This document shows, one piece after another, positions 15,741 through 17,085 of a stretch of DNA of 18,394 nt. Source of the DNA: Fidelibacterota bacterium. GTDB taxonomy: Bacteria > Fidelibacterota > Marinisomatia > Marinisomatales > S15-B10. Each line of letters opens with the position of its first letter. Position 1 is the first letter of the stretch. Made by a program: the position numbers and the translations under genes. The stretch is from assembly GCA_002729175.1 (NCBI GenBank), contig PBTS01000061.1, positions 13,171 to 31,564 of the forward strand, read 5' to 3'. The notes under the pieces were generated by a model that was not told the DNA's origin, searched no databases, and was given only the letters and a program-made list of their open reading frames with translations.

Positions 15741-15814
15741 GGGATCGTAGTTCAGTTGGTTAGAACGCCGGCCTGTCAAGCCGGAGGGCGCGAGTTCGAG
15801 TCTCGTCGGTCCCG
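15741..15814 (+). tRNA. tRNA-Asp (GTC)
   Basis: Full cloverleaf: acceptor GGGATCG/CGGTCCC, D-stem GTTC/GAAC, anticodon stem CCGGC/GCCGG with loop CTGTCAA (GTC at 15775-15777), T-arm GCGAG-TTCGAGT-CTCGT, discriminator G. CCA is not encoded. Confidence 0.97.
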
Positions 15815-17085
15815 CTCCTTATAATACCCGTTTTCTCGTCGAGAGAGAGCGGGTTTTTCTTTGTAAGTAAGTTTTTCTCAATTGGTCCTGATTTGTCCTG
15901 TTTTGTCCCAAAATTGCAACCATATTGCAACCTGCCTGTTAAAGCAGTCTCAAAATATTGGGCATTTTCAACCTGTAATCCTTGAATTAAGCCTACATAA
16001 TGTTGTTCGGTCACTTTAACACTGGAATGACCCAGAAACCTACTGGTGGCAAAAATGTCACGAGTTGCCATGTAGTACCATGCCCCAGCTGTTTTTCTAA
16101 GCGTGTGCGTTGATGCATGTTTGATCTGTGCCCTATCAAAAACTGACTTAACACGGTTGTAGACCATATCTCTTGTTAGACAGTGTCTATCAAGCCATCC
16201 TATACAGTCATCCATATCTTCAGGCCTTTGATTGAAAGCAGTGTAGAAAGGCCCTCCAACCACTCCCTTACGATCATTTAGAAGCTTTCTAACAGTCTCC
16301 TGGATCGGGATCACACGGCTCTTTGATGACTTGGTCTCCGGAAAAGTGATGATATCCTTACCAATACAGTCCCAACTGAATGAAGGATGGAGTATCTCAC
16401 TGGTCCTGGCTCCGGTAAATAGATAAAAAATGATAAGGTCCCTGGCATCCCGCTGGAATTCATCTTTGATGTCAAGGCTTTCAAGCGTCTCATTTAGCCT
16501 TTCTAACTCTTCTTCATCCAAGTACCGTACGTCCTTTTTTCTTACACTTACGAAAGGAACATCCAGGAAAGGACTACGATCCAAAAATCCTCTATCTACG
16601 GCAAACTTCAGGATAGTCCTTAAGTTGCGTAGGTTGGTATTGATCCCTTCAGATGAAAATCCTTTTTCTTTGCGGTAGACCTTGAACCCTTCCAGATCAA
16701 CAGCATCTAGTTTGTCTATCCTTTTATTCTTTAGATCAGGCCTGAAACCAAAGAGGGCCTCCACCGAGTTGCGGTATCTTTCCAGTGATAACCATCTCAT
16801 GCTACCGGACCTTACACGGAGCTGTCTTTCTTCAAAGAATTTGTTCCACAATTGCCATAGATTGAGAGGTCTTTGAAGTTTTTCAGGTGGTGGTTTAAAG
16901 CCTCTTTCTATCTGATTGACGCTGGCCAGAATCTCATTGCGAAAACTGTTAGCTTCAGCTTCCGTACCCTTAAAGGTCACCTGTCGTCTGGCACGGTTGT
17001 GATCAGTATAGTCGATCACAAAAGCACCTTCTCTTCGACCTGGGCGGACCCCCGGATACTTATGTTTCTTGTAACTCTTGCTCAT
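15760..17085 (-). CDS. Tyrosine recombinase / phage integrase
   Basis: N-terminal arm-binding-like domain (YPGV...FVIDYTD...RRQVTF), SAM-like core-binding domain, and catalytic set R (TGARTSE), K (TKSSK), HxxR (HTLR), LGH and Y (TEQHY). The C-terminal tail runs antisense into the tRNA. Confidence 0.95.
   Translation of the reverse strand: MSKSYKKHKYPGVRPGRREGAFVIDYTDHNRARRQVTFKGTEAEANSFRNEILASVNQIERGFKPPPEKLQRPLNLWQLWNKFFEERQLRVRSGSMRWLSLERYRNSVEALFGFRPDLKNKRIDKLDAVDLEGFKVYRKEKGFSSEGINTNLRNLRTILKFAVDRGFLDRSPFLDVPFVSVRKKDVRYLDEEELERLNETLESLDIKDEFQRDARDLIIFYLFTGARTSEILHPSFSWDCIGKDIITFPETKSSKSRVIPIQETVRKLLNDRKGVVGGPFYTAFNQRPEDMDDCIGWLDRHCLTRDMVYNRVKSVFDRAQIKHASTHTLRKTAGAWYYMATRDIFATSRFLGHSSVKVTEQHYVGLIQGLQVENAQYFETALTGRLQYGCNFGTKQDKSGPIEKNLLTKKNPLSLDEKTGIIRSGTDETRTRALRLDRPAF
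15826..15862 (+). terminator. Rho-independent terminator downstream of tRNA-Asp
   Basis: ACCCGTTTTCTC (15826-15837) pairs with GAGAGAGCGGGT (15843-15854): 12-bp stem with 2 G-U pairs and a 5-nt loop, followed by TTTTCTTT. Confidence 0.75.
15881..15932. repeat. Tandem direct repeats, candidate integrase arm-type or accessory-factor binding sites
   Basis: Three 10-bp units ATTGGTCCTG/ATTTGTCCTG/TTTTGTCCCA (15881-15910), then two exact ATTGCAACC copies (15913-15921, 15924-15932; 11-bp period). Confidence 0.65.

Follow-up and report, generated by a model that had tools for sequence, protein, structure and literature searches.

The integrase gene analysed here runs on past its catalytic domain, through direct repeats and a terminator-like hairpin, into the tRNA-Asp gene beside which its element is inserted, and finds its stop codon on the antisense strand of the D-loop; this layout is real, is common in the integrase family, and is of an already known kind. 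The stretch of DNA examined (18,394 nucleotides, hereafter the window) is the final 18.4 kb of a 31.6-kb contig in an 87-contig MAG. The explanation that we favour, with moderate confidence in it as a whole, is that the window carries the left junction (attL) of an integrative element in tRNA-Asp of a Marinimicrobia/Fidelibacterota genome, that int overlaps the attP of this element, and that the tRNA-coded tail of the protein is incidental. The element is probably phage-like. Under this explanation, the window would represent a family of lambda-type tyrosine integrases whose int genes overlap, at their 3′ end, the attP of the element itself: past the catalytic tyrosine and the C-terminal helix (to about residue 393), the frame would continue through the P′ arm, where two co-varying repeat sets would be followed by a terminator for the rebuilt tRNA and often by the tRNA-derived core too; and the stop would be the first in-frame stop wherever it falls, just before, inside or beyond the tRNA. 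The protein would end ...RLDRP-AF in the integrated form, and in a few residues encoded by an unseen P arm in the excised form. The argument draws on these features of the window:

15741..15815, plus strand: tRNA-Asp(GTC), the integration target; the sole tRNA found by ARAGORN
15760..15762, minus strand: stop codon TAA, antisense of the D-loop (tRNA positions 20-22); outside the predicted core
15760..17085 including the stop, minus strand: tyrosine integrase ORF, 441 aa (Pfam PF00589 and PF13102; phrog_1)
15763..15906, minus strand: C-terminal tail, residues 394-441, predicted to be disordered (pLDDT <50, AF2)
15768..15815, unstranded: predicted att core, anticodon stem to 3′ end, by analogy with relatives
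15826..15864, plus strand: terminator-like hairpin and T-run for the tRNA, element-supplied; read antisense by int
15881..15910, plus strand: type-2 direct repeats ATTGGTCCTG, ATTTGTCCTG and TTTTGTCCCA, period of about 10 bp, inside the ORF
15913-15921 and 15924-15932, plus strand: two type-1 direct repeats ATTGCAACC, 11-bp period, GGTTGCAAT in the int sense, inside the ORF
15997..15999, minus strand: codon of the catalytic Tyr363, invariant in a 36-sequence alignment; motif LGHSSVKVTEQHY
17090..17275, minus strand: Arc-like small DNA-binding protein, 61 aa (Pfam PF03869, E=1e-5)
17309..17560, minus strand: HTH_17 protein, 83 aa, excisionase-like (Pfam PF12728, E=3.5e-8)
17651..18307, minus strand: 218-aa ORF with a weak match to the phage single-strand-binding family phrog_1192 (E=5.5e-10)

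The 441-aa product, which ends ...SGTDETRTRALRLDRPAF*, is a tyrosine recombinase of the PF00589 family: R227, K252, R330, H353 and Y363 are invariant in all 36 aligned integrases, and the Pfam Phage_integrase match covers residues 188-364 (E=1e-15), with a SAM-like domain N-terminal of it. An AF2 model (mean pLDDT 84.4) places a β-sheet at residues 13-39, followed by a helix, and is folded as far as helix 364-393; Foldseek matched it best to full-length lambda Int (1z1b/1z1g). The predicted fold of the N-domain is compatible with the lambda type, arm repeats are seen on both P and P′ only in the relatives L010 and L015, and the modelled protein fits a heterobivalent integrase. The Arc-like, HTH_17 and 218-aa ORFs lie upstream of int on the same strand, and a Pfam search with the last of them gave no match. 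The anatomy given in the original prediction holds up well: the frame does stay open for 78 residues after the catalytic tyrosine; its course through the repeats, the tRNA terminator and the 3′ half of the tRNA was correct in all details; ARAGORN and the ORF coordinates confirm that its last 17 residues (425-441) are antisense tRNA and that the D-loop supplies the TAA, the overlap of the ORF with tRNA-Asp being 53 nt (15763-15815); and the Xis and Arc-like neighbours named there correspond to the excisionase-like HTH_17 ORF and the Arc-like ORF.

Insertion at the host tRNA-Asp, also predicted at the outset, is supported by an empty site in three genomes of the same genus (G016, G015 and G014), which carry an identical tRNA-Asp and the same flank, followed by TTTTGGTCGATCC...infA; the window diverges from them directly after 15816. 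The insertion lies at the host tRNA-Asp 3′ end, and the boundary of the element is at 15816. Sequence of the stretch 15300-18394 recurs in public data, with at least 0.91 of sampled words present in 20 runs of marine and vent metagenomes (15 studies). In four of the runs the contig carrying int (15790-17603) has k-mer depths of 12.6, 83.5, 58.3 and 22.3, against 39.5, 328.6, 517.7 and 100.4, in the same order, for the contig of the host flank; that is, 11-32% of the host-flank depth, contig depth being a crude measure. Runs X2 and X3 also show the empty-site sequence, as a loose end at 15816. Together, the lower depth of the int contig and the empty-site loose ends indicate that occupied and empty sites coexist, and the element is evidently mobile now or has been so recently.

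The layout recurs well beyond this genome. We surveyed 76 loci (17 from genomes, 58 from metagenomes, and the window; not dereplicated), 69 of which have the tyrosine motif; within 700 nt downstream of int, 46 of these 69 have a complete antisense tRNA (Asp, Val-tac, Met, Lys-ttt, Leu-caa, Glu-ctc, Arg-tct or SeC). The frame stops before the tRNA in 21 of the 46 and inside its 3′ 49 nt in 7, of which L011 reads through a masked N-run; in 12 it stops deeper inside the tRNA and in 6 beyond it. Thus int enters or traverses the tRNA at 25 of 46 loci and across seven different tRNAs, which argues that the layout is not an accident of one strain. Among the best 120 homologues listed, few of which carry a source name, the names are Neomarinimicrobiota, Fidelibacterota, Marinimicrobia or Caldithrix. 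Their C-termini extend from about 20 to about 140 residues after the tyrosine among the best matches listed, and about 30 of 110 close homologues have endings of the antisense-tRNA type, such as GIEPATSG.., RIRTCDLRLVRAAL, GIRTPNRRIMSPAL and DSNLRPPP...

The family comes in two arrangements. In long forms the tRNA comes 160-200 nt past the tyrosine codon and the ORF contains the repeats; short forms terminate 21-28 aa past the tyrosine and have the tRNA 216-253 nt after it, with the repeats in non-coding DNA. The relative closest to the window by C-terminal region, L018 (77%), also sits at tRNA-Asp and is a short form with different, TACTCTAT-like repeats; L081 and L085, the next closest, stop 3 nt before the tRNA. 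Early stops in close homologues had been named in advance as evidence against the original prediction, and these three relatives, which do stop before the tRNA, bear this out in part. The tail is not conserved: stops of the tRNA-Asp relatives are scattered over seven different places, 147, 31 and 3-4 nt before the tRNA, at nt 38 and 54 inside it, and 9-69 nt beyond it.

The DNA that the frame crosses appears to be constrained in its own right. Type-1 copies co-vary between loci (GGTTGCAAT/GGTTGCAAT, ATCTGCAAT/ATCTGCAAT, ATTCGCTAT/ATTCGCTAT, AACCACTAT/AACCACTAT, GGTTGCTAT/GGTTGCTAT and others); the three type-2 copies, among which ATT(G/T)GTCCTG occurs twice at 15881-15900, likewise co-vary among relatives; and, for L010 and L015, the type-1 motif specific to the locus is found again in the P arm. 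The type-1 cluster of the window is the only such cluster in the 87-contig MAG. From these sequence patterns, the type-1 and type-2 repeats are probable arm-type sites lying within the ORF. Given that both repeat copies change together and that the motif recurs in the P arm, the peptide LQLGCNFETKPDQSR would be imposed on the protein by the arm-type repeats. The hairpin proper (15826-15854), followed on the plus strand by TTTTTCTTTGT, contains a conserved TCTCGWCG motif, and relatives at other tRNAs have an equivalent hairpin with this motif. In different relatives the motif is translated as SRRE, LSSE or LDE; being read in different phases, it is conserved as DNA. Identity of the N-domain correlates weakly with the arm motif (Spearman 0.21, 231 non-independent pairs), and we dropped this correlation as support for the arm sites. 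We also considered a non-stop int mRNA ending at the hairpin; a terminator scan found none on the minus strand.

Is the open frame itself selected? We counted stop codons in 28 non-redundant long-form loci, in each of which a complete antisense tRNA follows the tyrosine by 160-200 nt. From 26 codons past the tyrosine to the tRNA, a total of 861 codons, stops number 8 in the int frame, 38 and 56 in the other two, and 47.8 ± 6.5 in base shuffles; in the less constrained, poorly conserved spacer and hairpin, the int frame has 1 stop, the others 10 and 8, and shuffles 16.4 ± 3.9. With 19 group representatives the contrast in spacer and hairpin is weaker (1 stop, against 4 and 5 in the other frames and 10.1 ± 2.9 in shuffles). 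These counts are suggestive of a frame more open than expected by chance, in a comparison weakened by shared ancestry and by repeat constraint at the DNA level. The extension across the P′ arm to the tRNA edge may therefore be kept translatable by selection, for a reason that we are not able to name. Past the tRNA edge there is no sign of selection: the 28 long forms stop at least 30 nt before the tRNA in 3 cases, at its edge in 5, at nt 38 in 3, at nt 50-68 in 11 and beyond it in 6, and close relatives read the same tail DNA in different phases.

It could also be that the extension is purely neutral readthrough, in which constrained repeats, hairpin and tRNA happen to be free of stops in this phase. 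Such a reading accommodates the scatter of stops along the whole tail and the short forms such as L018, which keep TACTCTAT-like repeats in non-coding DNA; moreover, repeats and hairpin fill most of the roughly 100 nt concerned, and with 6-10 free codons about 60% of loci would be open by chance, by our own estimate. Nevertheless, we consider it rather unlikely, in view of the single int-frame stop in spacer and hairpin against 10 and 8 in the other frames, and of the A/T-rich linkers between repeats, which have TAA or TAG out of frame and none in frame.

Our favoured explanation, with int reading across attP, is that insertion rewrites the end of the protein, and this can be followed in silico in two relatives that have both att copies on one contig. 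L010 lies at tRNA-Asp, shares the GGTTGCAAT motif with the window and has an exact 49-bp repeat with copies 42 kb apart; its integrated tail is ..GLTGR-RSNQTELRSLRT*, versus ..GLTGR-EDTTGEAE* in the excised form. L015, at tRNA-Lys, has a 47-bp repeat with one mismatch and copies 23 kb apart, and its tails are ..NGLKG-HCSTS* integrated versus ..NGLKG-QRSVRRKKK* excised. The excised tails come from translating the far att copy in the int frame, and the duplicated cores comprise 49 and 47 nt at the tRNA's 3′ end, respectively. In L009 and L012, int abuts a tRNA fragment of 51 and 43 nt, respectively, and the frame runs through this fragment into the adjoining DNA. L009 has a second 51-nt copy 10 kb further on, at the contig end; in L012, another element, which has an integrase of its own, intervenes before a complete tRNA-Lys 10 kb further on, and this indicates a tandem array.

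For the window, the core is placed at 15768-15815 by analogy with these relatives. Williams sublocation I, the anticodon-loop class, has an identity block that stretches from the anticodon stem to the tRNA's 3′ end, and such a block is seen in the relatives (49, 47, 43 and 51 nt), the window itself showing a loose end at 15768 only. That loose end is in one contig of run X2, which joins the window's tRNA at precisely 15768, where the anticodon stem starts, and continues leftward with dissimilar sequence; read in the int frame, the junction gives ..RLDRP-DDTDETES*, similar to the excised tail EDTTGEAE* of L010. As a single contig of one run, it may belong to a different element, and a candidate P-arm 30-mer taken from it had 0 matches in G000, the fetched loci, genome_contigs and viral_contigs.

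The far end of the element could not be recovered. The contig ends at 18394, before this end is reached; a second att copy was found neither by exact 12-mers nor by blastn-short in the 87 contigs of the MAG, and these contigs likewise contained neither the B′ flank taken from G016 nor a second arm-motif cluster. A metagenome contig (L031) encoding a 100% identical Int is cut 541 nt upstream of int, and Logan contigs fragment past about 17603. Searches of 15 genomes of the same family returned just weak partial matches to the element, no integrase relatives were found in viral_contigs, and a second att copy searched for in the element of L007 (G004) was not found. As the far end is not assembled, attP of the window was not rebuilt; and as neither its attR nor its attP was found, the limits of the core are drawn from relatives and the one contig.

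With a core of 15768-15815, the stop at 15760-15762 falls 5 nt outside it, in keeping with the proposal that the D-loop stop is host-only DNA, to which the relatives and the X2 junction point; host-only coding would then comprise the last two residues, Ala-Phe, and the stop. Integrated and excised integrases of the window thus probably differ at the C-terminus, by a change small in size. The original prediction of differing tails therefore stands in silico for L010 and L015, but for the window it shrinks to about two residues and a stop rather than a large tail. Should the duplicated core instead reach the D-loop or beyond, both forms would have the same tail and there would be no switching. 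Identity blocks do differ between elements (43-51 nt in four relatives), which leaves some room for a longer one here; yet in all four mapped relatives the block stops 43-51 nt from the 3′ end, at the anticodon stem, L010 shares both tRNA-Asp and the GGTTGCAAT arm motif with the window, and the X2 loose end is exactly at 15768, so that we judge a longer core highly improbable.

The remaining question is whether the tail swap matters to the enzyme. C-terminal tails regulate lambda Int and Cre, and the tail could be a true recombination-dependent switch of the Mx8 type, in which a host-coded or a P-arm end alters activity, specificity or stability. Several observations would suit a switch: the tails of L010 and L015 do differ between states; the X2 junction tail DDTDETES* resembles EDTTGEAE* of L010; stops are depleted in the int frame as far as the tRNA; and, according to a review, Mx8 on integrating gives int a new 3′ end and alters how the enzyme behaves (PMC6070905). 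However, only about 2 residues change on the integrated side of the window; integrated tails across the family end in unrelated ways (..PAF, ..RAAL, ..SPAL, ..CSTS, ..SLRT and ..NQLS); 11 of the 28 long forms would have no swap (8 stop before or at the tRNA edge, one of these at the second nt, and 3 stop deeper, in the probable core); and the tail is predicted to be disordered. In addition, a natural variant with a 1-nt insertion behind 15826 (one contig each in runs X6 and X4) would translate into 436 aa with the end ..DSNSRPPA*; its stop would lie within the predicted core, which would abolish the swap. A switch of the Mx8 type is for these reasons distinctly unlikely. We also rejected a degron at the -PAF end, which is unlike an ssrA-like -LAA end: tail ends are heterogeneous in the family, and conservation, predicted structure and population variants offer no support for it.

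Rather than a tuned switch, the tRNA-coded end is most likely an incidental disordered appendage, since its pLDDT is below 50, relatives read it in different phases, the tRNA-Asp relatives stop in seven different places, and the 1-nt insertion variant occurs in nature. The regulatory switch proposed originally is, on this evidence, unlikely, and finds no support in conservation, predicted structure or population variants. A broader version, in which the tail is a family-wide state sensor whose frame is held open and whose end is written by the DNA past the core (the tRNA of the host in the integrated state, the P arm in the excised state, the next element in a tandem array), tuning the stability or directionality of Int, strikes us as very unlikely.

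The layout bears on how such genes are read. Arm-type repeats, tRNA terminator and att core are all read as codons here, and the DNA serves two uses at once. For annotation, the long "conserved" C-terminal motif LQLGCNFETKPDQSR is to be taken as a shadow of repeated DNA, and endings like GIEPATSG or RIRTCDLRLVRAAL as tRNA read in antisense. Were the tail to influence activity, many natural variants in the family would be available for testing C-terminal control of tyrosine recombinases.

The original prediction had taken the layout to be unusual; it is not new, being known in Mx8 and in DsiB. Among 50,697 phage records, no close phage relative of the integrase was found (best matches at most 26% identity), and Myxococcus phages are absent from the best 15 matches listed. 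The closest published case is nevertheless IntP/IntX of Mx8, a tyrosine integrase with attP inside int, for which a review states that integration yields a recombinant gene with a new 3′ end and altered enzyme behaviour (PMC6070905). The window resembles it in that the int ORF crosses the att core (covering 15763-15815 of the tRNA, with the boundary at 15816). Integration changes the C-terminus in silico in L010 and L015 and, as judged from the predicted core and one candidate junction, probably in the window too. Mx8 reportedly also integrates at tRNA-Asp, and there a large C-terminal segment is said to be replaced, with a measured effect on activity; here, in contrast, neither the catalytic domain nor the C-terminal helix would be touched, and the change would be limited to a few residues of a tail predicted to be disordered.

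In Dehalococcoides, the 3′ end of dsiB always overlaps attL and takes its stop from ssrA or a neighbouring island, giving a divergent tail and possibly different behaviour on the circular form, according to McMurdie et al. 2011 (PMC3146451). DsiB differs from the integrase of the window in being a serine recombinase that targets tmRNA and lacks arm-type sites. In the accessible part of a preprint on the mv4 integrase, we found nothing on overlap of int and attP. SSV-type archaeal integrases and BPs-type immunity also place attP inside a gene, so that recombination rewrites a protein. Integration of SSV cuts the integrase gene in two, and in BPs it is reportedly the repressor, not the integrase, that loses a degron; neither applies to the element of the window, whose int is not split, the entire catalytic domain lying on the element side of the core.

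The integrase can also be compared with lambda Int, with which it would share, according to the model, a three-domain fold with an N-terminal arm-binding-like domain, and with which the family shares transcription of int towards attP and, in L010 and L015, repeats on both arms. The int gene of lambda ends at the edge of the P′ arm, whereas the ORF of the window traverses the P′ arm and enters the core. An int gene that spans its own attP is a recurrent design rather than an oddity of Mx8, and it occurs in lambda-type integrases of marine Marinimicrobia at no fewer than seven tRNA targets.

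The element-supplied terminator of tRNA-Asp carries the octamer TCTCGWCG in its loop region, and family members at all target tRNAs share this feature; in the window the octamer occurs twice:

15834-15841, hairpin copy, with an equivalent in the hairpins of relatives
15801-15808, second copy, inside tRNA-Asp

The antisense tRNA that encodes the integrase C-terminus also includes the anticodon: GTC at 15775-15777, read antisense and in frame, is the Asp codon GAC, which supplies the D of the terminal ..RLDRPAF. This match of anticodon and codon is a coincidence of phase.

A more distant tyrosine integrase, P0121 (482 aa; locus L028, 16642-18090, on contig C9 of genome G001), has a reading frame that crosses all of tRNA-Lys(ttt) in antisense and then enters the neighbouring tRNA-Lys(ctt); an integrase of the present family, itself frameshifted, belongs to the same tandem array. 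On the same contig, 50 kb from the tRNA-Lys junction, a 34-nt segment (57800-57833) is an exact inverted match to the junction between the tRNA-Lys fragment and the arm of the neighbouring element.

One short-form family member (L070) adjoins a tRNA-SeC gene, which is an unusual integration target. A contig (L003) on which a member of this bacterial integrase family adjoins tRNA-Val is assigned to a 'Candidatus Woesearchaeota archaeon' MAG; the archaeal assignment may result from faulty binning.

In four runs, Logan contigs recover window positions 15790-17603 as a single piece, and past 17603 (17603-18394) they split into many short variant pieces. The assemblies probably stop here because the module formed by the integrase, Arc-like and HTH_17 genes seems common to several different element backbones.
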